The position numbers and the translations under genes were made by a program. Positions 2,193 to 16,181 of a DNA stretch of 64,000 bases are shown piece after piece. Source of the stretch: a bacterium. Its GTDB lineage: Bacteria; Patescibacteriota; Minisyncoccia; Moranbacterales; UBA2206. The stretch is taken from positions 397-64,396 of the forward strand of contig JAURXY010000015.1 in NCBI GenBank assembly GCA_030654225.1, written 5' to 3'. The notes under the pieces were generated by a model. The model was not told the DNA's origin, searched no databases, and saw only the letters and a list, made by a program, of their open reading frames with translations. Each line of letters starts with the position of its first letter. Position 1 is the first letter of the stretch.

Positions 2193-3365
2193 ATGGACAT
2201 ATTTTGGGCAAAACCAGAAGATTGGAAAAATTTAGACACTAAAAAAATTGCCACTCCCTGTTATCTAATTTCCGAAAAACTTCTAGAAAGGAATCTTAGA
2301 ATTTTAGATTCCGTACAAAGAAAAACTGGCGCCAAAATAATTTTGGCTCTCAAGAGTTTTTCTATGTTTAGTGTTTTTCCAATAATCGCAAAATATCTCA
2401 ATGGCACTACCGCCAGCTCCCTCTTTGAGGCCAAGCTTGGCCGAGAAGAATTTGGCAAAGAAGTACATATTTTTGCGCCGGCCTACAAGCCAGAAGAATT
2501 TGATGAGATTATGAAACTTAGTGATCATATTGTTTTCAATTCTTTCTCACAGTGGAAAATGTTTAGAAATAAAATTGCATCGTCCAGAAAAAAAATTCAT
2601 TGTTCTTTGCGAGTTAACCCACAGCATTCTGAAGTAGAAACTGCTCTCTATGATCCTTGTGACAAAAATTCCCGCCTTGGGATAAAATTAGAAGATTTCA
2701 AAAAATCAGAACTTTCTGGCATAACGGGATTGCATTTTCATAACCTGTGTGAATGCGGAGCGGATTCATTCAAAAGAACACTAGCTTTTTTTGAAAAAAA
2801 ATTTGGCAAGTTTCTTTTTGAGATGAAATTTGTTAATTTTGGCGGAGGCCATCACATTACTCGATCAGATTATGATGCCGCACTACTTTGCAAAACAATC
2901 AATGATTTCAAAAAGCGTTATCCGCACTTAGAAATTTATCTAGAACCGGGCGAGGCAGTGGTGCTAAATGCTGGAATTCTAATTTCATCTGTTCTAGATT
3001 TAATTGAAAGTAAATCAAAAATTGCCATCCTTGATGCTTCCGCTGCCACACATATGCCAGACACCTTGGAAATGCCCTATCGCGCAGAAATTGTTGGTGC
3101 CAAAGAACCCAAGAAATATCCGCACACCTATCGCCTCGGTGCACTAACTTGTCTAGCTGGTGATATTATGGGAGATTATTCTTTCAAAAAACCGCTAAAA
3201 ATTGGCGACAAATTAATTTTCCTAGATATGGCGCACTATACAATGGTGAAAAACAATACCTTCAACGGCATCAATCTTCCTTCAATTCTTATCCAAAAGA
3301 AAAATGGAAAAATAATCGTGCAAAAAAAATTCGGCTATTTGGATTTCAAAAATAGACTTTCCTGA
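2193..3365 (+). CDS. nspC: Carboxynorspermidine/carboxyspermidine decarboxylase-like PLP (fold type III) decarboxylase.
   Basis: 390 aa. Overall similarity pattern to NspC/diaminopimelate-decarboxylase-type enzymes (FGGGHHITR..., EPGEAVV, GxLTCLAGD). Confidence 0.75.
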   Translation: MDIFWAKPEDWKNLDTKKIATPCYLISEKLLERNLRILDSVQRKTGAKIILALKSFSMFSVFPIIAKYLNGTTASSLFEAKLGREEFGKEVHIFAPAYKPEEFDEIMKLSDHIVFNSFSQWKMFRNKIASSRKKIHCSLRVNPQHSEVETALYDPCDKNSRLGIKLEDFKKSELSGITGLHFHNLCECGADSFKRTLAFFEKKFGKFLFEMKFVNFGGGHHITRSDYDAALLCKTINDFKKRYPHLEIYLEPGEAVVLNAGILISSVLDLIESKSKIAILDASAATHMPDTLEMPYRAEIVGAKEPKKYPHTYRLGALTCLAGDIMGDYSFKKPLKIGDKLIFLDMAHYTMVKNNTFNGINLPSILIQKKNGKIIVQKKFGYLDFKNRLS

Positions 3366-4758: not shown

Positions 4759-5529
4759 CTAAAGAATAGTTTTTTTAATTTGATTTTTTTCATCTGGACA
4801 AAAATCACCAATCTTTTCTAATAGTCTACCCCCGTCACTAAATTCAGTTTGCGCATTCATAAGACAACCGGAAATTGCGTTATGCCCTAGTCCAAGTTGA
4901 TGGCCAAATTCATGCAGTAGTAAACTTGACATATGCGTGTCGAGATTTATTTGAGTATCATTTCGCATACTATTGGAAAGTGAATTTTTAAATATTACTA
5001 TTCCATTTTCTAAAAGTGTTGACCCCAAATTTGCACTATCATCTTTTTTCTGGCTTGCGATAAAAACATAGATGATTGCTCCTTGTGAAGATGGGGAAGA
5101 ATTATTTTTCTCTAATTCTTTTTGCAAATCTCCCATATTTATCGAGGCCTCATATTTGATACCTGGTCGAAATAAATAGATTGTTTTTTTCCCAGTTATC
5201 TCTTCAACTTTTTTTGCAAAAATTTTGGCGGTTTCATCGCTAATTTCCAACCCATTCATAGCAACAATTTTTATGCTTATATTTTTATATCTGTCTCCCA
5301 GATAGTCCGCCTTTGCATCCCCATCAAAATGAAGCCCGAGAGCTTGGCGCATCATTGGATAACGCGCAAACTTGTATCGCAAATTATCATTGAAAAAATT
5401 GCTTCCAGTGTCCAGTGCTGAAAACCTAAAATACATAAAGATGGCTAGGCCAGAAATGGAAAGAAGTAAAATAATTACAAATAGAAATTTTACTATACGC
5501 ATATTGATTTTATATCTCAATCCTATCAC
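4759..5529 (-). CDS. Membrane-anchored metzincin-type zinc metalloprotease (HEFGHQLGLGHN).
   Basis: HExxHxxGxxH zinc-binding motif near the C-terminus; N-terminal TM helix. Confidence 0.75.
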   Translation of the reverse strand: MIGLRYKINMRIVKFLFVIILLLSISGLAIFMYFRFSALDTGSNFFNDNLRYKFARYPMMRQALGLHFDGDAKADYLGDRYKNISIKIVAMNGLEISDETAKIFAKKVEEITGKKTIYLFRPGIKYEASINMGDLQKELEKNNSSPSSQGAIIYVFIASQKKDDSANLGSTLLENGIVIFKNSLSNSMRNDTQINLDTHMSSLLLHEFGHQLGLGHNAISGCLMNAQTEFSDGGRLLEKIGDFCPDEKNQIKKTIL

Positions 5530-5561
5530 AAAAAGTTCGCGCTGTCTTTGTTAATACAAAA

Positions 5562-5592
5562 AATAATCCCGATTACTCGGGATCATTTTTCA
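5562..5592. terminator. Hairpin ATCCCGA-TTAC-TCGGGAT flanked by A-run and T-run, a putative bidirectional terminator.
   Basis: Perfect 7-bp stem with poly-T downstream on both strands. Confidence 0.4.
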
Positions 5593-5678
5593 CTGAGCTG
5601 GGAAGTTTACCCCGTAGTTATTTATATACTTCTGGGGTGCATATAGTTCGGACTGGGCTTGGGAAGAAGTGCTTTGTG

Positions 5679-6709
5679 GCTTAATTAAAAATATGGGAGG
5701 CTAAAATTATCAATTTGTGGCATACTAAAGCTACAAATCGACTAATAATTATGAAGCTCCGTAATATGTTTAAAAAAAATGCCCCCAATGCAATTTCAGG
5801 AAAGTAAAAAAGAATGGAAAACGAAGAGGATTACAAAGATACAAATGCCAAAAATGTGGATTACAATTTCAAAGCAAGGGACGTCCAAATAGGGAGAAGA
5901 ATAAATTATGGAATCAGTATGTCTGGGGCAAGCAAACACTAAAACAATTATCAATTACATTTAAGAAGTGTATTCCAGCTATTCAGAAAAAATTAGATAG
6001 TCATGTGTTAGAAAAAAATGAAGTATCTCCACAACCCTTAGTACTCATCGCAGATGTAACATTTTTTGGAAGAAGCTATGGAATATTAGTTTTCAGATCT
6101 CAGTTACTTAAAAGAAATATATATTACAGAGAAATTAAGCGAGAGAATCCAGAAGTTTACAGACAGGCAAAAATTGAGTTAGAAAACAAAGGATTTATCA
6201 TTACAGGCATTGTTTTAGACGGCAAAAGAGGCATACGCGAAGTATTTCCGAATATTCCGGCTCAGATGTGTCAGTTTCACCAAACAGCTATTTTGAAACG
6301 CTATTTGACCTCTAGACCGAAAACAAAAGCAGGACAAGAATTGCGAGCAATTGGATTGGCGCTAACAATTTTAACAGAAAAAGATTTTGAAACATTATTA
6401 AATGAATGGTACGAAAGATGGAAAGATTTTATTAAAGAAAAAACATTTGCCTCCGATGGAAAACATTGGAATTACACTCATCGCAGAATGCGATCCGCAT
6501 ACCGAAGTCTGAAAACAAACACTCCGTTTTTATTCACACATCAAAAATATCCGGAACTCAATATTCCAAACACTACAAATTCGCTGGATGGATTTTTTGG
6601 AAAAATAAAAACGCTCCTGCGTGTCCATAAAGGACTAACACAAGAGCGTAGGTACAAAATTATTCAAGAAATTTTGGAAAAATAGCCTCCCAATTATTTA
6701 ATTAAACCA
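5679..6709 (+). mobile_element. IS1-family-like insertion sequence of about 1.03 kb with imperfect 25-bp terminal inverted repeats (GCTTAATTAAAAATATGGGAGGCTA ... TAGCCTCCCAATTATTTAATTAAAC).
   Basis: Terminal inverted repeats identified by eye. They enclose a single transposase gene with an IS1 InsA-like zinc finger. Confidence 0.6.
5751..6685 (+). CDS. Transposase, IS1-like (InsA-type CPxC...QRYxCxxC zinc ribbon fused in frame to the catalytic body). Full-length reading needs a -1 shift within an A8 run at 5772-5779.
   Basis: Frame 0 reads MKLRNMFKKNAPNAISGK-stop. The -1 frame from the A-run reads KKCPQCNFRKVKKNGKRRGLQRYKCQKCGLQF... and runs uninterrupted into the tracked ORF 6005..6685. The zinc-finger pattern matches IS1 InsA. 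Confidence 0.6.
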
Positions 6710-6714
6710 GCTTT

Positions 6715-6906
6715 TCGAAAAGCCTAGGCTCCACCCCAAAGCTCAACTTTTTAGGACGCCTTCATTGAATTTTTTTCCCCGTTATTCCGCGTCAAGTCTG
6801 CGTAAGTCCGCGGTGTAAACACACTAATCTGCAGGCAAGAATCCGAACTAGGAGCTCAGAAAAAGAAACAACATCGAGGTACGACTCAGCCGAAACCAAA
6901 TCGCCC
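6715..6906 (-). ncRNA. GC-rich structured non-coding segment abutting the IS right end. It is a candidate ncRNA, possibly a disrupted tmRNA-like gene, but unassigned.
   Basis: No ORF here. GC is well above the local background. The minus-strand reading begins GGGCGAUUUGGUUUCGGCUGAG, reminiscent of the tmRNA 5' tRNA-like motif (GGGGnnGAUUnnGGAUUCGAC). Several local helices are present (CCGCG...CGCGG). A 14-nt perfect palindrome GCTTTTCGAAAAGC lies at the IS junction. Confidence 0.2.
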
Positions 6907-7062
6907 ATATCTTGAAAAATGTTTCTATATTGATGACAAAAGATAGAAGTCACCAATTGCCTGCAATTTACTGCTAATCATCTCAAAAACATTAAGTTTC
7001 AAGATGACTTTGGAGCATAGCATAAGTTGGAAATTTTGTCAAATGGGTGTACAATTGGAATT

Positions 7063-8067
7063 ATGATAACAACATCCAACGAACAACCTGAAGACCTAAC
7101 TTTCGATGTCACTCTTCGCCCACAAAATTTCAACGATTATGTGGGGCAAGTTAAGGTTAAGAAAAATTTGGACATTTTGATTCAAGCGGCCAAGCACAGA
7201 AAGGAGTCTATTGAACATGTTTTGCTTTATGGCCCAGCCGGCCTTGGCAAAACAACGCTGGCCAATATCATCGCCAAGGAAATGGGCGTCAACATCAAAA
7301 CTACTTCCGGCCCAGCTATTGAACGCGTGGGTGATTTTGGCTCAATTCTCACCAATCTTTCTGACGGAGACATTCTTTTCATCGATGAAATTCATCGCCT
7401 CAATAAATCCATCGAAGAAATTCTCTATCCAGCTATGGAAGATTATAAATTGGACATTATTATCGGCAAAGGTCCGTCAGCTCGAACTATTCAACTTGAT
7501 TTGCCAAAATTCACTTTGATTGGCGCGACCACCAAACTGGGTTCTATTTCCAATCCTCTCCGCAATCGTTTTGGCGCCATTCATCGTTTGGAATTTTATA
7601 CCAACCCAGAAATCAAAAAAATTCTTGAGCGCAGTGCCAAAATTTTGGGCGTAGTCGCTGACGAAACCGGTCTTTCAAAAATTTCCGAATGTGCTCGCTC
7701 TACTCCTCGCGTGGCGAACCGTCTTTTGAAACGCGTGCGCGATTTTTCTCAAATAAAAAATCATGCTATTATAAACGAAGCAGTAGCAATCGAAGCGCTG
7801 GAAATGATTGATGTTGATCCGCTTGGACTTGAACCCGCAGACAAACATATTCTGCGAGTCATCATCGAGAAATTTAATGGTGGTCCTGTGGGACTAGGCA
7901 CAATCGCCGCCGCTACTTCGGAAGAAATCAAAACCATTGAAGATGTTTATGAACCATACCTAATTCAAATTGGATTTTTAGCCAGAACTCCACGTGGAAG
8001 AATCGCTACTGAAAGCGCTTATGATCATCTAGGAATAAAATATAACGGGGAGAAAAAATTATTTTAA
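7063..8067 (+). CDS. ruvB: Holliday junction branch-migration ATPase RuvB.
   Basis: [36 protein letters not shown] and the C-terminal winged helix are a classic RuvB signature. The start was moved to the internal ATG (MITTSNEQ...). Confidence 0.93.
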
Positions 8068-8401: not shown

Positions 8402-8992
8402 ATGCAACCAACCTTCACTCACTACCATTTTGAAGGACAAAAAAATGGTGAGGAGATTCTTATGGTAATCCATCGCCACTGGTTTAATATCCTTACCCAC
8501 TTTTCTGTGATTTTCTTTATGATACTTTTTCTTTTTGGCAGTTATTTTCTCACTGCTATTTTGTTTGATGAATTTAGCGAGCAACTACTCCTCAACCTCA
8601 CCGCCTTTATGCGTAGTCTTTTTTTCACTTTCCTCTGGTTACTTTTTTTTGCCATCTGGATTGACTACTATTTTGATGTCTGGATAGTCACCAGTGAAAG
8701 AATAATAAACATTGAACAAAAAGGGCTTTTCACTCGCGTCGTGAGCGAGTTGGAATTGGAAAAAATTCAAGATGTCACCACAGATGTTCGTGGAGTTATA
8801 CCAACTTTTCTCAATTATGGTCATATCCTCATTCAAACCGCCGGTGAAAGAGAACGCTTCATTTTCCGAAACGTTCCCGATCCTTATGCTATCAAAGACA
8901 CTATTATGAAACTGCAAAATGAATTGGAAAACAAAGAAGAAAATCAATTCGGAGAAATGCTACGAGAAAAAATTCATCACGAAAATACTTAA
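8402..8992 (+). CDS. Membrane protein with a bacterial PH (bPH_2 / YdbS-YdbT-like) domain.
   Basis: Two N-terminal TM helices followed by a domain with the bPH_2 pattern (WIVTSERIINIEQKGLF...TDVRGVIPTFLNYGHILIQTAG). Confidence 0.7.
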   Translation: MQPTFTHYHFEGQKNGEEILMVIHRHWFNILTHFSVIFFMILFLFGSYFLTAILFDEFSEQLLLNLTAFMRSLFFTFLWLLFFAIWIDYYFDVWIVTSERIINIEQKGLFTRVVSELELEKIQDVTTDVRGVIPTFLNYGHILIQTAGERERFIFRNVPDPYAIKDTIMKLQNELENKEENQFGEMLREKIHHENT

Positions 8993-10668: not shown

Positions 10669-11388
10669 ATGTCAGGACACTCACATTGGGCGGGAATCAA
10701 ACAAAGAAAAGGGGTAAATGACGCTAAGCGCGCCAAGATTTTCACAAAGCTCGCCAAGCCAATTGTCATTGCCGCGCGTGAAGGTGGTGGCAACCCAGAC
10801 ACAAATTTCAAGCTTCGCATGGCTATGAAAAAAGCTCAGGAATTCAATATGCCTAAAGACAATATTGACAAAGCAGTCAAAAAAGGCACAGGTGAAATGA
10901 GTGGCGCAGAAATTGTTGAAATCATCTACGAAGCCAAAGGTCCTGGAAACATCATGATGCTTATCAAGACTTCCACCGACAACAAAAACCGTACAGTGAG
11001 CGAAATCAAAAGCATTCTCACTAAAGCTGGTGGGAAATTTGGTGAATCAGGCAGTTCCATGTGGAATTTTGAGCAAGTCGGTGAAATCACTATTGATCTA
11101 TCCGGCAAAGATGCTGACGAACTCGAAATGCTCGCCATCGAAGCTGGTGCCAAAGACACGAAAATTGATGGCAACTTGCTTTTTGTCTATACCGAAACCC
11201 AAGACCTGCAAAAAGTCCAAGAAAAATTAATGGCAAATAATATTGAAATTTCTGAATCAAATTTAACTTTCCTTCCAAAATCTACCGTCGAAATTGACTC
11301 CGCCACCCAAGAAAGCTACGACAAACTTCTCGAAACTCTTGATGATCAAGAAGATGTGGAGGAGATTTTTGATAATATCGCATCATAA
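10669..11388 (+). CDS. yebC: YebC/PmpR-family transcriptional regulator (TACO1 family).
   Basis: MSGHSHWAGIKQRKG...AKRAKIFTKLAK...REGGGNPDTNFKLR is the invariant YebC N-terminus. Confidence 0.95.
   Translation: MSGHSHWAGIKQRKGVNDAKRAKIFTKLAKPIVIAAREGGGNPDTNFKLRMAMKKAQEFNMPKDNIDKAVKKGTGEMSGAEIVEIIYEAKGPGNIMMLIKTSTDNKNRTVSEIKSILTKAGGKFGESGSSMWNFEQVGEITIDLSGKDADELEMLAIEAGAKDTKIDGNLLFVYTETQDLQKVQEKLMANNIEISESNLTFLPKSTVEIDSATQESYDKLLETLDDQEDVEEIFDNIAS
11342..11380. repeat. Direct repeat copy 1 (39 bp, the yebC 3' end: CTTGATGATCAAGAAGATGTGGAGGAGATTTTTGATAAT).
   Basis: A near-identical copy (2 mismatches) lies at 12598-12636. The two copies bracket the DUF4143 ATPase gene. Confidence 0.7.
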
Positions 11389-11453
11389 TCAGACTTGACA
11401 AATAACTATATTAGATTTAATATAGGGAATATAATACCTAAATTAAGCGTAAT

Positions 11454-12581
11454 ATGAAGAATAGAATCATCAAAAAAGCCCTACAAAAGCAGTTTTTTCA
11501 AGGAAAAGCGATTATTTTAGTTGGCGCAAGACAAGTAGGTAAAACTACCTTAACCCAAGATCTAATTAGTAAAAAAGACACTTTGTTTTTTAACTGCGAT
11601 AACCCAAGCGAGCGCGAATCTCTCAATGAAAAAGATTTGGATTATCTAGAAAAAATTATTGATTCAAAAAAAATAATTTTTATTGACGAAGGTCAAAAAG
11701 TAAAAAGTATTGGGCAAACCGTCAAACTTTTAGTGGATAGATTTAAAAAAGAAAAACAAATAATCATCACCGGCTCTTCCAGCATGAATCTGCTTGACCA
11801 GACAGCTGAGGCACTCACAGGAAGAAAAATTGTTTTTAACTTATTTCCGTTAAGTTTAGAAGAGCTTTTTCCTAAAAAAAATCCATTAGAAATTTCAAAA
11901 AATTTGGAAAGTTTGCTTATCTTTGGATCATATCCGGAAGTAATCAACCAAAAATCTTTTGACAAAAAAAGAAACATTTTGGAAGAATTATCTTCATCGA
12001 ATTTATATAAAGACATTTTAGAATTTCAACAAATAAGAAATTCCGCCGTGATTTTCAATCTTCTCAAAGCGCTGGCTTTTCAAGTCGGTTCAGAAGTTTC
12101 CTACAATGAGCTGTCCAATACTATTGGAATAGACAAGAAAACAGTTGAAAAATATATCGATTTGTTGGAAAAAAATTATATCCTCTTTCGTTTACCACCA
12201 TATTACAAAAACAAAAGAAAAGAAATTTCCCAATCTAAAAAAATTTATTTTTACGATCTGGGAATTAGAAATGCTATTATCAATAATTTTAATTTATTGG
12301 ATTTTCGCGATGATATTGGAGCACTTTGGGAAAATTTCATAATCAATGAACGCCTAAAATACCAATCCTATCATAAAATTTATTCCAACAACTATTTTTG
12401 GAGAACCTATACCGGCGTTGAAGTAGATTGGATAGAAGAGCATGATGGAAAACTTTTTGGCTTTGAATTCAAATTTAATCCTAAGAAAAAAATAAAAGCT
12501 CCCGCCTCTTGGCTAGAAACATATCCCGAATCTTCTTGGAAACTAATAAACAAAGAAAACTTCACAGATTTTATCGCATAA
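11454..12581 (+). CDS. AAA-family ATPase with a DUF4143 C-terminal domain.
   Basis: Walker A ILVGARQVGKTTL, Walker B IFIDEGQ, and the conserved C-terminal architecture of the AAA_14+DUF4143 family. Confidence 0.8.
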   Translation: MKNRIIKKALQKQFFQGKAIILVGARQVGKTTLTQDLISKKDTLFFNCDNPSERESLNEKDLDYLEKIIDSKKIIFIDEGQKVKSIGQTVKLLVDRFKKEKQIIITGSSSMNLLDQTAEALTGRKIVFNLFPLSLEELFPKKNPLEISKNLESLLIFGSYPEVINQKSFDKKRNILEELSSSNLYKDILEFQQIRNSAVIFNLLKALAFQVGSEVSYNELSNTIGIDKKTVEKYIDLLEKNYILFRLPPYYKNKRKEISQSKKIYFYDLGIRNAIINNFNLLDFRDDIGALWENFIINERLKYQSYHKIYSNNYFWRTYTGVEVDWIEEHDGKLFGFEFKFNPKKKIKAPASWLETYPESSWKLINKENFTDFIA

Positions 12582-12597
12582 TTATTTTTGAAATCCT

Positions 12598-12636
12598 TGA
12601 TGATCAAGAAGATGTGAAGGAAATTTTTGATAATTT
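12598..12636. repeat. Direct repeat copy 2, a displaced remnant of the yebC 3' end (encodes LDDQEDVKEIFDNL-stop).
   Basis: See 11342-11380. Confidence 0.7.
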
Positions 12637-13465
12637 ATAATTTCCCATTCTTTATCCTCGCTAATTCATCTCGAAGCATCATTAGCGTTTCTTGTTTCAA
12701 AATTTTTCGAATCATTTGAAAATTGTCATTTGACAAAAGCATATTCAAATCTTGATCGATAATTTCTTGGGTTATTTTATCTTCAACAAAAACCACCAAA
12801 TCCTCAAAGAATTTTTCTATTGAACATTTTCTTATGTCTTCTATAATTTTTGCATCATAGCGAAAACCATTCCAAAAAAAATAATGAACATCGTATACAT
12901 CGCGACCAGCAATACGGCCATTTTTTTCAAAGCGATTGATAAGTGCCACTAATTTATTCGCCACCATCGTTTCTCTCGTTTGGCAATTCACAATACGATC
13001 AATTTCCTCTAGCTGAGCGCTTTCATATTGATTAAATTGCGGGACAGGAAAGCATATATCTATTTTTAGCGTATTTCTTCCGCTCGCAGAAGTTGGATAT
13101 TTCAAAAAATATTGTGGGACATTACGACTCTTGTCTTTTATCTCCAAGCCAAGCTTTTGAAAAATTTCTTCCATTTTTTCTTGAACTTTTTTGATTTCTT
13201 CTTTTTCACTAATATAATCAAAATCCAAATCCACTGAAAATCGATCCAAAAATCCTCGCATAGCCGCGCAAGTTCCGCCTTTGAAATATAAAACTGTCGA
13301 CAAAAAGGCGTCGTCAAATAGTGCACTTAGAAGACGAAACATCCACGCTTTATGCTCGGCATCTTTTGCAGTTGGGGTAATCATTTTTTTTGTTTTTTTA
13401 ATTATTATTTTTATCGATTTTGTGGATAACCTATTTCTCTTTGAATGGCGCGCACTTTTTTCCAA
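12635..13465 (-). CDS. AbiEii/AbiGii-family nucleotidyltransferase toxin (type IV TA).
   Basis: YFKGGTCAAMRGFLDRFSVDLDFDY matches the DUF1814/AbiEii signature (FKGGTAL...RFSEDLDF). Confidence 0.78.
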   Translation of the reverse strand: MEKSARHSKRNRLSTKSIKIIIKKTKKMITPTAKDAEHKAWMFRLLSALFDDAFLSTVLYFKGGTCAAMRGFLDRFSVDLDFDYISEKEEIKKVQEKMEEIFQKLGLEIKDKSRNVPQYFLKYPTSASGRNTLKIDICFPVPQFNQYESAQLEEIDRIVNCQTRETMVANKLVALINRFEKNGRIAGRDVYDVHYFFWNGFRYDAKIIEDIRKCSIEKFFEDLVVFVEDKITQEIIDQDLNMLLSNDNFQMIRKILKQETLMMLRDELARIKNGKL

Positions 13466-13998
13466 TCAATCAAACGATCGCCGTCAAAATAACATCGGGG
13501 ATTGAAATATAAAATATCCGCCACCGCTCTTTCTGTTGACGCAACCTGCACCCCATTTTCCAAGACAATTCCAGCGTCATTATATAAATATTTATCCGCC
13601 AAACGACGACAACGATATTCTCGACCAGCAACAACAAAAGTTTTCGAAATAGAACTGATGATTGAAGTTTTTGGAATTTCTTGAAAAATTATTCCATTCC
13701 TAGCCAAAATTGTTTCGGTGCTAATATAAGCATAGCGATGCAATATTTTCACTCCCAAAAGAAAAGAATCGATTTTTTCCGCTGGCTGGAGAGAATAAAG
13801 ACCTCTTTGAATTCGCGTAATTAACCCCTCTTTAGCATATCGCTTGAGCGTAGTGTGTAGTGTATTGGGGTTTTTTATCTGCCATAAATTAGCCAAATCG
13901 TCGCAGTGAAAGACTAAAATGCCCATTTTAGCCAACTCAGCAAATCTTTGCTTATATGAGCCTTTATTTAATTTTACGGTATTTTTAACTGTACTCAT
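13411..13998 (-). CDS. AbiEi-family antitoxin / transcriptional regulator.
   Basis: Upstream of AbiEii and overlapping it by 55 nt; the size and N-terminal wHTH-like region fit. Confidence 0.7.
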   Translation of the reverse strand: MSTVKNTVKLNKGSYKQRFAELAKMGILVFHCDDLANLWQIKNPNTLHTTLKRYAKEGLITRIQRGLYSLQPAEKIDSFLLGVKILHRYAYISTETILARNGIIFQEIPKTSIISSISKTFVVAGREYRCRRLADKYLYNDAGIVLENGVQVASTERAVADILYFNPRCYFDGDRLIDWKKVRAIQREIGYPQNR

Positions 13999-14048
13999 AT
14001 GTACAGTATAGCAAACTTAGGATGTTTAGTCAACTACTTCCTGCGCGA

Positions 14049-14084
14049 ATCTTGCGCGAATCTTGCGTGAATGATTTATTTGTA
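14049..14084. promoter_or_regulatory. Three tandem 11-bp repeats (CTTGCGCGAAT) upstream of abiEi, a candidate operator.
   Basis: cctgcgcgaatcttgcgcgaatcttgcgtgaatga read directly. The AbiEi family is known to autoregulate through repeats in its promoter. Confidence 0.4.
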
Positions 14085-14175
14085 CTATATTTATCTCATA
14101 AATCAGCGACACCTGAATTATACTAAATGTTCACGTATAAACGAGATATTCAAAATATTATAAAAATTTAAAAAT

Positions 14176-14472
14176 ATGAACATCACTTTTGAAAAAATAG
14201 ACGAAATATTAAAAATTCTCAATATAGGGAAAAGTTTCCGTATTTTTGGTGGAATTGGGCTTTTAATATCTTTATGGACGACAAACGAACTAGCACTAAA
14301 AATATCTTTAATCACTTTCATTTTTGGAGCACTTTCTAGAATAGTAGAAATGATAAACAAAACTCAAAAAATAAAGGATAGTATCCTTTGGCAAATTACT
14401 TTTTGGATGATATTTTTAGTGCTATACACCGTATCAATTAATGTTCAACTAAATATTTTTAAATTTTTATAA
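14176..14472 (+). CDS. Small membrane protein, hypothetical.
   Basis: 98-aa ORF with 2-3 TM segments in an AT-rich accessory patch. Confidence 0.35.
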   Translation: MNITFEKIDEILKILNIGKSFRIFGGIGLLISLWTTNELALKISLITFIFGALSRIVEMINKTQKIKDSILWQITFWMIFLVLYTVSINVQLNIFKFL

Positions 14473-14529
14473 TACATCGCCTAACAAGAAATATTCGGTT
14501 CACAAAATTAATTAAATTATTTTAATCCT

Positions 14530-14745
14530 ATGAAGAAAAACTATGTCGTGCTCATCTTGGTTGCCCTTCTTATAGCTGGACTTGCTTTTTATCGATATGA
14601 TTATCGTCCATCTAAAATAAAGCGACAATGCTCCGCAGAAGCTAGATTCGCCTCAAGGGCGACTAATGAACCGAACGATGCAAAAAGACAAGAATACATA
14701 AATAGGTATTACGACGATTGCTTGATGCGATTCGGATTAAAATAA
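14530..14745 (+). CDS. Small exported or TM-anchored protein, hypothetical.
   Basis: 71 aa with an N-terminal hydrophobic helix. Followed by a 62-bp repeat that also follows the 15232 ORF. Confidence 0.35.
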   Translation: MKKNYVVLILVALLIAGLAFYRYDYRPSKIKRQCSAEARFASRATNEPNDAKRQEYINRYYDDCLMRFGLK

Positions 14746-14803
14746 TTTTATTTTTAACGCTTGCTCATCTAAATTTGTCTCCGCTACGCTACGCCAAACT
14801 TCG
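14742..14803. repeat. 62-bp direct repeat, copy 1 (TAATTTTATTTTTAACGCTTGCTCATCTAAATTTGTCTCCGCTACGCTACGCCAAACTTC).
   Basis: Identical copy at 15427-15490. Both sit immediately 3' of small ORFs. Confidence 0.6.
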
Positions 14804-14830
14804 GATATTCCTAGGCGTTAGCTGAAATAC

Positions 14831-15142
14831 ATGTTTTTTCAAGAATCTATATTTTTGATAATTAATAATCAAACGCATATGATAAACCCAGAAACAAAAA
14901 AAGAATTTACAGAAGCTGAATTATTGCATGTTATCATGGAAGATGTCGGGAGACTTGCAACAATAGAAAATACTCTTCGAGAAGAAGGTGAAAATTTACC
15001 TTTATACAACAGAGTCAGAGGCATTGAAATGCGCACCTATGAAACAGTGAATGTTTTGTTTGCAATAAAACGATTACTTACAGCTCTAACGTGTCTCGTA
15101 GCAGGAATTGCGCTATTATTATTTGCAAAATTCTTTTTTTGA
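14831..15142 (+). CDS. Small protein with a C-terminal TM helix, hypothetical.
   Basis: 103-aa ORF. Confidence 0.35.
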   Translation: MFFQESIFLIINNQTHMINPETKKEFTEAELLHVIMEDVGRLATIENTLREEGENLPLYNRVRGIEMRTYETVNVLFAIKRLLTALTCLVAGIALLLFAKFFF

Positions 15143-15231
15143 AGTTAAAAGTTTTAAAAACATGTACATCAGCTAACACGGCATAGCCGATTCGCTCACT
15201 AAACAAAATTATTTTTAAACTCTTTAAATTT

Positions 15232-15426
15232 ATGAAAGTATTTTTTGATCCAAGATCTTATAAAATTGCAAACGGCAAATGGGTGCCAAAATTCCATAAA
15301 ATCACTCGGGGGTATCCTACTAAGATACAAGAAAATGGTTTCGGCGATAAGCAATTTGACACCAAAGAAGAAGCAAATAAATATGTTATTGAATACTGTT
15401 TACAACAAGGCTATGTTCAGGTATAA
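15232..15426 (+). CDS. Small hypothetical protein.
   Basis: 64-aa ORF followed by the 62-bp repeat. Confidence 0.35.
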   Translation: MKVFFDPRSYKIANGKWVPKFHKITRGYPTKIQENGFGDKQFDTKEEANKYVIEYCLQQGYVQV

Positions 15427-15490
15427 AAAATAATTTTATTTTTAACGCTTGCTCATCTAAATTTGTCTCCGCTACGCTACGCCAAACTTC
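15427..15490. repeat. 62-bp direct repeat, copy 2.
   Basis: See 14742-14803. Confidence 0.6.
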
Positions 15491-15602
15491 TCGCATCACT
15501 AACGTTGTGTCGAAATGTCGCACGCTATAATTTTCATTAATAACCCTCCTGGGTTATTTTTTATCTCTAAAATAATTCACTGCCCTTTAAAAAAAATTCC
15601 TT

Positions 15603-16181
15603 TTGAGCTATAATATAGATATGAAAAATAAATCAAAAACTTCAAAATCAACTTTGCGAATCCTAGGTGTTGATCCTGGGACGGCCACCACTGGTTGGGC
15701 AATATTAGAAGAAAAAAGTGGCGAGATGAAACCCTTGGCCTATGGCCATATTAGCACCAGTCCCGAAAAATCAGATGACGAACGAATTTTGGAAATATCC
15801 AAAGATTTGAAAAATATTATTGAAAAATATCAACCTCAGGAAGCTGGCATTGAAGAAATTTTCTTCTTCAAAAATCAAAAAACCATCATTACTGTGGCTC
15901 AAGCTAGGGGAGCAATTCTATTGACATTAAGGCAAAATAATGTTAGAGTGTCCAATTACACTCCCCTCCAAGTCAAACAGGCGATCACGGGCTATGGGCG
16001 AGCGGATAAAAAACAAATGCAGACTATGACCAAGAGTATTTTGAATTTAGTAGAGTTGCCAAAGCCGGATGACACAGCCGATGCTATTGCGATTGCGCTT
16101 TGCCACATCAATAGTCGAAAAATTAATAACCTTAATCGCGATTCGAATCAACGAATGCATTCGAATCTACGAATAAACTAA
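15603..16181 (+). CDS. ruvC: Holliday junction resolvase RuvC. The C-terminal ~15 aa are encoded by the CGAAT repeat array and may be read-through.
   Basis: RILGVDPGTATTGWAIL, the catalytic Asp/Glu arrangement and ADAIAIALCH are a RuvC signature. Confidence 0.9.
   Translation: MSYNIDMKNKSKTSKSTLRILGVDPGTATTGWAILEEKSGEMKPLAYGHISTSPEKSDDERILEISKDLKNIIEKYQPQEAGIEEIFFFKNQKTIITVAQARGAILLTLRQNNVRVSNYTPLQVKQAITGYGRADKKQMQTMTKSILNLVELPKPDDTADAIAIALCHINSRKINNLNRDSNQRMHSNLRIN

Follow-up and report, generated by a model that had tools for sequence, protein, structure and literature searches.

Introduction

Foreign DNA that carries one stretch of homology to a chromosome can be integrated by host recombination, with no recombinase of its own, and it may then have the homologous segment on both sides. 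Campbell-type (ends-in) insertion-duplication and homology-facilitated illegitimate recombination (HFIR) of this kind have been described in transformable Acinetobacter, Streptococcus and Pseudomonas (PMC5361080, PMC3240628), mainly as laboratory outcomes or rare events. Here we describe a similar arrangement in a 64,000-nucleotide stretch of DNA (the window) from a Candidatus Moranbacteria bacterium (GenBank assembly GCA_030654225.1, contig JAURXY010000015.1), Moranbacteria belonging to the candidate phyla radiation (CPR, Patescibacteria). In this window the 3′ end of yebC is duplicated around a single gene, which encodes an AAA_14/DUF4143 ATPase-nuclease of the PDC-S01 family. Unlike insertion-duplication and HFIR, the arrangement is found repeatedly in nature, with one gene family and many host genes, and the duplicated arms appear to serve further spread.

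Several other systems share parts of this architecture. In C-terminal displacement at Rhs, contact-dependent inhibition (CDI) and type VI secretion system (T6SS) effector-immunity loci, an incoming module likewise supplies a new 3′ end and leaves the old end orphaned downstream, but there a variable toxin domain is displaced together with its immunity gene, always in the same target family (PMC5361080), whereas here the targets are housekeeping genes unrelated to one another, with duplications of just 30-219 nt. Integrase islands at the 3′ ends of tRNA, tmRNA and protein genes are bounded by direct repeats of the gene end (attL and attR) and preserve the gene, as here, but the present case has no integrase, no conserved attachment (att) core, and repeats that are imperfect and variable in length. 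Nor does it resemble a transposon or insertion sequence, since there is no transposase between the repeats, there are no terminal inverted repeats, and the duplication (20-219 nt) is neither fixed nor short. The defining features of both classes were looked for and are absent, and the element is neither an integrase island nor a transposon.

A C-terminal duplication also accompanies some free-standing homing open reading frames (ORFs), Allomyces atp6 being a case in point. At atp6 and cob of fungal mitochondria, where free-standing homing endonuclease ORFs are associated with partial C-terminal duplications (PMC6279837), a nuclease gene sits at a host 3′ end, the working host C-terminus is kept, and a duplicated C-terminal fragment lies beyond the insert, all of which is shared with the locus described here. 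LAGLIDADG and GIY-YIG homing endonucleases have defined target sites, however, whereas the protein considered here is an AAA+ / PD-(D/E)XK fusion, a predicted nuclease whose targets vary from locus to locus.

The family itself has been seen in a different light. DUF4143 (COG1373) is classed as a PD-(D/E)XK family of unknown function (PMC3424549), and PDC-S01, in which an ATPase is fused to a PD-(D/E)XK domain, is reported to be the fourth commonest candidate defence system in prokaryotes, although validation is pending for most such candidates (PMC12988326). PDC-S01 is thus abundant, yet its mode of action and its movement are unknown (PMC12988326). Neither flanking duplications nor mobility is mentioned in the papers we found on DUF4143, COG1373 and PDC-S01, where the system figures as an abundant, unvalidated defence candidate.

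A cassette inserted at the yebC stop codon

A minimal cassette of promoter plus gene has been inserted, with defined polarity, at the stop codon of yebC, leaving a 50-nt duplication and a replacement tail (Table 1). The first-pass annotation, made by a model from the sequence alone, had noted that the last 39 bp of yebC recur downstream with two mismatches. The 39-mer, CTTGATGATCAAGAAGATGTGGAGGAGATTTTTGATAAT, does occur exactly at 11338-11376 and again at 12596-12634 with two mismatches, both G-to-A, at a spacing of 1258 nt; however, the start given for it was 4 nt off, and the first copy stops short of the actual end of yebC, which runs on for three codons (ATC GCA TCA, encoding IAS) and a stop. 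Extended without gaps, the repeat is 50 nt long and 88% identical. None of 100 dinucleotide-preserving shuffles of the window gave two matches to the 39-mer. The repeat is unique coding sequence of yebC and no hairpin, which disposes of the common terminator motif that had been named as a possible refutation. Its copies differ at six positions, so they do not represent a collapsed or duplicated assembly path, and the same architecture is present in independent assemblies at other loci (L085 versus L086, and L130-137; loci are numbered throughout). A chance match, a terminator motif or an artefact of AT-rich metagenome assembly is, on these grounds, so improbable as to be negligible.

The usual YebC C-terminus among relatives is ...EIFDNL*, whereas YebC of the window ends ...EIFDN-IAS*. 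The second copy reads ...LDDQEDVKEIFDNL / ...FEILDDQEDVKEIFDNL and then reaches a TAA stop of its own at 12638-12640, as had been proposed, and the YebC end of one relative, GATAATTTATAA (L002), matches it exactly. Copy 2 is the native yebC end, and copy 1 is part of the working gene, with a 12-nt tail that is foreign to the closest relatives. The idea that the insert provided a replacement C-terminus is therefore borne out: the new tail is IAS*, and the native ...DNL* end, as in L002 and most relatives, is kept downstream. Within this native end the palindrome TTATAA (12635-12640) also closes AbiEii, supplying its final sense codon and its stop when read on the minus strand. Because copy 2 is the native yebC end and shares TTATAA with AbiEii, the two genes overlapped tail to tail in these six letters before the insertion; the AbiE pair already adjoined yebC at that time, and the cassette now stands one codon ahead of the native yebC stop. 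An empty site would have upstream yebC joined directly to ...TTTTTGATAATTTATAATTTCCC.

To place this structure among its relatives, we compared 80 yebC loci from Moranbacteria and other Patescibacteria (L001-L080), a check that the first-pass annotation had also suggested. yebC abuts ruvC in most of them, and in 14 of the 80 the two genes are separated by 1.7-5.8 kb of variable cargo (AbiE, Fic, small ORFs). The yebC-ruvC interval (11389-15602 in the window) is a variable integration hotspot, much as had been supposed from the AbiE pair, and in none of the 80 loci does an ATPase gene lie downstream of yebC. The best relative (PCRW01000065, L001), with a YebC 94% identical to that of the window, has the same AbiE pair (90% DNA identity) and a 393-aa Fic gene where the window has the ATPase, and in a distant relative (L006), which also has this AbiE pair, yebC lies directly beside AbiEii with no ATPase. 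We read the repeat as an insertion scar because yebC-ruvC adjacency is the usual state, because L006 lacks the ATPase and L001 has Fic in its place, and because the end of copy 2 is that of L002. No exact empty site was found in a close relative, the closest ones (L001 with Fic, and L139-141) holding other inserts. Around the Fic insert of L001 the yebC-end repeat is not present, with at most a 5-nt repeat there, and no yebC-end duplication was seen with the other yebC-ruvC cargo, for which the only match was a 16-nt intergenic repeat in L007.

The cassette spans approximately 11391-12582, or about 1.2 kb, consists of a promoter, a leader and one ORF, and was horizontally acquired. Its limits are set by comparison of independent insertions, between which DNA similarity runs from 60-63 nt before the ATG, at the -35 box, to the stop codon and not beyond; the window and L081, for example, are 77.7% identical over 1204 nt, from -60 to +1. 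The leader contains a sigma-70-type promoter with a 17-nt spacer and, downstream of the -10 box, a conserved motif, GGGAATATAAT..CTAAATTAAG (GGGAATATAATCACTAAATTAAG-like). No terminal inverted repeats link the cassette ends, and the G+C content is 30.8% as against 34.9% for the window. As claimed from the sequence, and now supported by Pfam and by ORF content, the ATPase gene is the sole gene between the repeat copies and the only substantial ORF there. The absence of an integrase inside likewise holds: no recombinase, integrase or transposase lies between the repeats, the rest of the 64-kb window not having been scanned for recombinase genes. There was no Rfam match in 11200-12800, and a search of viral contigs returned no relatives.

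Table 1. Positions in the window of the duplicated yebC end, the cassette and the neighbouring genes.
Feature	Coordinates	Strand	Evidence or remark
yebC, 239 aa, complete	10669-11388	+	Pfam TACO1_YebC_N and Transcrip_reg; 94% identical to L001 YebC
Direct repeat copy 1, within working yebC, codons ...LLETLDDQEDVEEIFDN	11327-11376	+	Repeat alignment
Junction filler ATCGCATCATAATC, source of new yebC tail IAS and stop	11377-11390	+	Not in closest relatives
Conserved cassette leader	11391-11453	+	Promoter scan; kept across independent insertions
Promoter -35 box TTGACA	11395-11400
Promoter -10 box TAATAT	11418-11423
AAA_14/DUF4143 ATPase-nuclease gene, PDC-S01 family, 375 aa	11454-12581	+	Pfam, PADLOC, motifs, model
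Walker A, GARQVGKTT	11523-11549
Walker B, IIFIDEGQ	11673-11696
PD-(D/E)XK signature	12348-12476		E299, D325, E338-x-K340
Direct repeat copy 2, non-functional native yebC 3′-end remnant (..FEILDDQEDVKEIFDN)	12585-12634	+	Repeat alignment, YebC C-termini
Native yebC end AAT TTA TAA (N, L, stop)	12632-12640	+	Sequence reading
AbiEii	12635-13465	-	Domain and defence profile matches
AbiEi	13411-13998	-	Domain and defence profile matches
AbiE pair together	12635-13998
ruvC	15603-16181

The duplication recurs at unrelated host sites

Members of this gene clade show the same repeat-cassette-repeat architecture at host sites that are unrelated to one another. Direct repeats of host DNA flanked each of the first three close homologues examined in other genomes, and we extended the comparison systematically. 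For every gene, the 400 nt on its upstream side were compared with the 400 nt on its downstream side and the best match on the same strand was taken, with a score cut of 40 bits; 423 genes encoding 250 aa or more in these loci served as controls. A scar was present at 8 of 14 independent loci with close cassette homologues but at only 4 of the 423 controls (Fisher p = 5e-11), and all four of these controls were palindromic intergenic repeats or a spurious ORF. The first-pass annotation had proposed a search for other DUF4143 genes flanked by 3′-end duplications of their upstream neighbour, and genes flanked by duplications of neighbouring sequence do exist.

The duplicated segments include the 3′ ends of yebC in the window (50 nt, 88% identity), of a TrmB-like gene (L081; 57 nt, 89%, with a third copy at the intact gene), of a glycosyltransferase gene up to its stop (L085, 219 nt, 100%; L086, 215 nt, 98.6%) and of a histidine kinase gene (L130-137; 87 nt, 90%), and also the 5′ end of a downstream ABC gene (L120, at the second gene of a tandem pair of paralogues; 87 nt, 94%), a portion of a small ORF (L088; 71 nt, 91.5%), terminator-like DNA (L089; 30 nt, 96.7%) and a promoter-like region upstream of the downstream gene (L105; 44 nt, 91%). 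L083 (20 nt) and L092 (39 nt, holding a repeated motif) are borderline cases. In the window, L085, L130 and L120 the repeat belongs to a resident gene next to the cassette, and on the outer sides the host sequence runs on without interruption. The downstream repeat usually starts 0-40 nt past the ATPase stop, and four upstream repeats end at, or within one codon of, the host stop codon.

Site-specific insertion into a gene 3′ end, as first envisaged, is therefore half right: the insertion at the extreme 3′ end of yebC is real, but it is not site-specific, as the duplicated host segments differ. Across loci, the repeats share neither sequence nor length (30-219 nt, or 20 nt in a borderline case) and represent at least eight different host sequences, which excludes a common att site and the fixed duplication of a transposon. 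The same data bear on the idea that the 39-50-bp repeat serves as attL and attR for an integrase or recombinase whose gene lies elsewhere and which acts in trans. Direct repeats of a gene 3′ end together with a restored reading frame are the classical signature of an integrase island and would speak for such an enzyme. However, there is no recombinase within the element, the repeats of other family members are unrelated in sequence and range over 20-219 nt (the test for a shared core failed), they are only 88-94% identical at several loci, and other cargo of the same hotspot has no such repeats. Action of an integrase in trans is accordingly very hard to credit.

The scar is also not a family-wide property of the protein, because no flanking repeats were found at four plasmid copies from other phyla (Treponema, Desulfosarcina, Trichlorobacter and Bacteroides) or at about 10 metagenome loci with roughly 45% identical proteins.

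Side observations were made at several of the loci with close homologues. At L120 (3001-5570) two PDC-S01 paralogues lie in tandem. At L117 a 22-nt copy of the ATPase 5′ coding start lies 207 nt upstream of the gene (2792-2813 and 2999-3020) and is perhaps the remnant of an earlier ATPase copy. L081 is a related Moranbacterium in which an 84% identical cassette (4798-7625) lies upstream, not downstream, of yebC, between two 3′-end fragments of the TrmB-like gene, with a third, intact copy of that gene 700 nt further on; its position therefore reflects a different insertion history in the same neighbourhood.

Population variants point to homologous recombination

The most informative case is that of protein P0049, which is encoded on contigs from eight different samples (L130-137). 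The 1197-nt cassette is identical in all eight contigs, whereas the repeats vary in their outer parts, with three upstream haplotypes and two downstream haplotypes occurring in four combinations. L130 and L132 share an identical block that reaches from -161 to +50 relative to the gene and no further, and their downstream DNA is unrelated past +88. The block begins in the upstream copy and ends in the downstream copy, and in the coordinates of the duplicated segment these two edges are at most about 15 nt apart, which is what would be expected of a single crossover, or of two abutting homologous arms, within that segment. Judged from these haplotypes, the inner halves of both repeats appear to travel with the cassette, and the outer halves appear to be those of the recipient. 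The repeat of L132 runs on in a more diverged form as far as the stop of the host gene (shuffle test p = 5e-4). The two repeat copies of L085 are identical to each other and both differ from both copies of L086, which suggests gene conversion between the L085 copies. A protein-level similarity beyond the repeat core at L088 was also considered and was discarded when it failed the shuffle test.

In the window, four of the six differences between the repeat copies fall in the left 11 nt and two in the other 39, a clustering that is only suggestive of insert-linked inner repeat parts; a single contig carries the window cassette. The tail that follows copy 1, GATAAT-ATCGCATCATAA, resembles a natural yebC allele, that of the Moranbacterium L138, which ends GATAATATCGCATAG (DNIA*), and fits a donor yebC fragment that entered together with the cassette. 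Five of the six differences are non-synonymous, and copy 2 has an unusual L-to-F and an unusual E-to-K among them, so selection does not act on that copy.

We favour the reading that the duplication in the window was produced by host homologous recombination of a cassette joined to a donor yebC 3′ fragment, and we put its probability at roughly 0.55. The cassette would have arrived attached to a piece of the donor yebC 3′ end, and host recombination would have integrated it within that piece, either by a Campbell-type, ends-in single crossover of a circularised fragment or by a one-sided homologous anchor and an illegitimate second join. Either route would necessarily leave the homologous segment on both sides of the insert, and neither would require an integrase, a transposase or an att site. 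The upstream copy would keep yebC intact, reading into the 12-nt tail from the insert, and the downstream copy would be the original end of the recipient. Once formed, the repeats could serve as portable homology arms for entry of the cassette into the same gene in related strains. The earlier proposal that DUF4143 genes are cargo of an unrecognised integration mechanism survives in so far as comparable duplications surround them at other loci, but the population data speak for homologous recombination and not for a dedicated recombinase.

CPR genomes are tiny, and the loci compared here show that a promoter-plus-gene unit can enter the last codons of housekeeping genes without disrupting them, at the cost of a short duplication, after which the duplicated arms would allow passage from strain to strain by ordinary recombination. 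The scar provides a sequence signature by which recent integrase-free gene gain can be recognised, dated and traced, and it opens a concrete way to ask if the nuclease contributes to its own spread.

A number of points weigh against homologous recombination as the whole explanation. It accounts for spread among related genomes but not for first arrival at at least eight unrelated sites, and no donor in which yebC (...DNIAS*) is followed by the cassette was found. Sliding identity of yebC against L001, L139, L002 and L138 shows no clear 3′-ward drop that would mark donor DNA. Similarity extends significantly past the repeat core only in L132; the extension in L120 is weak (p = 0.04), and L088, L085 and the window show no detectable one. 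Repeats are missing from six of the 14 close-homologue loci (L090, L116, L117, the first gene of L120, L122 and L125). The right edge of the insert is almost always 0-40 nt from the stop codon, which hints at a defined end, and the non-synonymous differences between the window copies fit decay of a once-identical copy equally well as a foreign origin.

Two further candidates from the window were tried and not retained. One was a donor-derived 3′ part of yebC, for which the sliding comparison gave no clear identity discontinuity. The other was a terminal redundancy (ATCGCAT..TAA, present at the left junction and again where the ATPase gene ends, as a more-than-unit-length copy of a circular form might leave), which is seen in the window only; there are perhaps 5 nt of it in L089, and it is not present in L081, L085 or L130. 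The heptamer ATCGCAT followed by a stop occurs at three places, in the new yebC tail (11377-11388), at the end of the ATPase ORF and at the end of the L138 yebC (1015-1030), so that the ATPase gene's own 3′ end, ATCGCATAA (12573-12581), carries the same heptamer as the new yebC tail. This double resemblance could be due to chance, to microhomology in the founding insertion or to a donor allele, and either resemblance, that to the L138 allele or that to the ATPase 3′ end, may be the meaningful one.

Many of the cassette contigs of L130-137 reach just 1.4-1.7 kb and stop within the flanking repeats, and several homologues from the protein search lie on contigs of 1.3-1.5 kb, which suggests that assemblies often fragment at PDC-S01 cassettes.

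The ATPase-nuclease and the possibility of target duplication

The protein encoded by the cassette has the domains AAA_14 (Pfam E 2e-31) and DUF4143 (E 3e-41), and it matches the PADLOC PDC-S01 model (AAA_14 plus DUF4143, COG1373; profile PDLC04789) end to end (E 1.4e-151, residues 1-374 against profile positions 1-373 of 375). By this profile match it is assigned to PDC-S01 and is a candidate phage-defence gene. Among 42 homologues, residues G29, K30, T31, D78 and E79 are invariant, and of the PD-(D/E)XK signature E299 and D325 are invariant and E338 nearly so. The AlphaFold model (mean predicted local distance difference test score, pLDDT, 89.9) has an AAA+ domain, helical and winged-helix-like domains and a C-terminal unit, whose core has an alpha-beta-beta-beta-alpha-beta order at residues 288-365. 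A search of the PDB by sequence gave no match, and by fold it gave only generic AAA+ proteins (RuvB, RFC, Apaf-1 and ORC).

The features of this protein bring in a different origin for the repeats, a true target-site duplication in which 20-219 nt were copied by fill-in of a staggered double-strand break or by template switching in replication or repair. The break could be the work of the ATP-dependent PD-(D/E)XK nuclease that the cassette itself encodes, in which case the gene would be self-mobilising and homing-like. Translocating ATPase-nucleases are known to cut at variable distances, which would suit this reading. That the repeats flank PDC-S01-type genes within CPR loci specifically, and not other cargo, would also follow, as would the invariance or near invariance of the catalytic E...D...ExK and Walker motifs, the right edge of the insert at the stop codon, the four repeats that end at a host stop codon, the 100% identity of the L085 repeats, and the largely non-synonymous differences in the window, which are as expected of a decaying duplicate. 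On the other hand, the cassette lacks terminal repeats and nothing at its ends is conserved outside the promoter and ORF, flanking repeats are lacking outside the CPR-type clade (none at the 4 plasmid copies, none at about 10 metagenome loci) and at 6 of the 14 close-homologue loci, and target duplication predicts neither the natural-allele-like tail after copy 1 nor the diverged extension in L132. We think it somewhat unlikely, though it is the strongest competitor of homologous recombination.

A bolder version is that CPR-clade PDC-S01 is, instead of or besides a defence gene, a selfish self-propagating ATPase-nuclease cassette, which would make or exploit breaks at gene ends, so favouring its own insertion with long target duplications of variable length, and would spread through populations in a homing-like manner via the duplicated arms. 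The presence of an identical cassette at the same site in different strain backgrounds is the only hint, and an indirect one, of copying into empty alleles (homing). We regard this version as doubtful and would not expect it to hold; if true, it would help explain the rank of PDC-S01 among the most abundant prokaryotic 'defence' candidates.

Turnover and side observations in the yebC-ruvC neighbourhood

At the yebC stop (directly after GATAAT or GATAATTT), each of three sister lineages has an insert of its own, all of them within 2 nt of the same point: the ATPase cassette in the window (11370-11390), Fic in L001 (6700-6740 and 7915-7950), and unknown DNA in L139-141 (7700-7845 in L139). Turnover at the yebC stop is frequent, because these sister lineages have different inserts at the same nucleotide. 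Such turnover, together with the tandem or partial ATPase copies of L120 and L117, would suit a local rearrangement without new acquisition, namely a tandem duplication that took in the yebC 3′ end and an ATPase gene already present downstream, with partial deletion afterwards, or the replacement of an earlier cassette. However, two or more events would be needed at each of at least eight independent loci, a second cassette fragment is not present in the window, and the identical cassette in different strain backgrounds would be left unexplained; we judge local rearrangement to be decidedly improbable.

The population contigs read for L139-141 end 0-85 nt past yebC, as if a repeat or strain-variable region began there. 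In L007, a 16-nt exact direct repeat is found just past the yebC stop (6108-6123) and about 180 nt before ruvC (8597-8612); it brackets 2.5 kb of cargo and may be the boundary of another insertion. A 43-aa ORF of the window (12509-12640) starts within the ATPase 3′ end in another frame and crosses the yebC remnant to the stop of that remnant; it is unlikely to be a gene.

In Patescibacteria and Planctomycetota loci, palindromic intergenic repeats (REP-like, for repetitive extragenic palindromic, or terminator-like) flank some core genes, among them ruvB and yebC (L081, 573-617 and 1653-1698; L019, 4463-4565 and 5581-5682; L067, 5901-5965 and 6753-6813). In the cassette leader, the motifs CTAAATTA / TAATTTAG, repeated or partly palindromic, lie around and after the -10 box when the window (11395-11453) is compared with L081, L083, L085, L116, L117, L120, L122 and L130. 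They look like a candidate operator, perhaps for the winged-helix domain of the ATPase protein itself.

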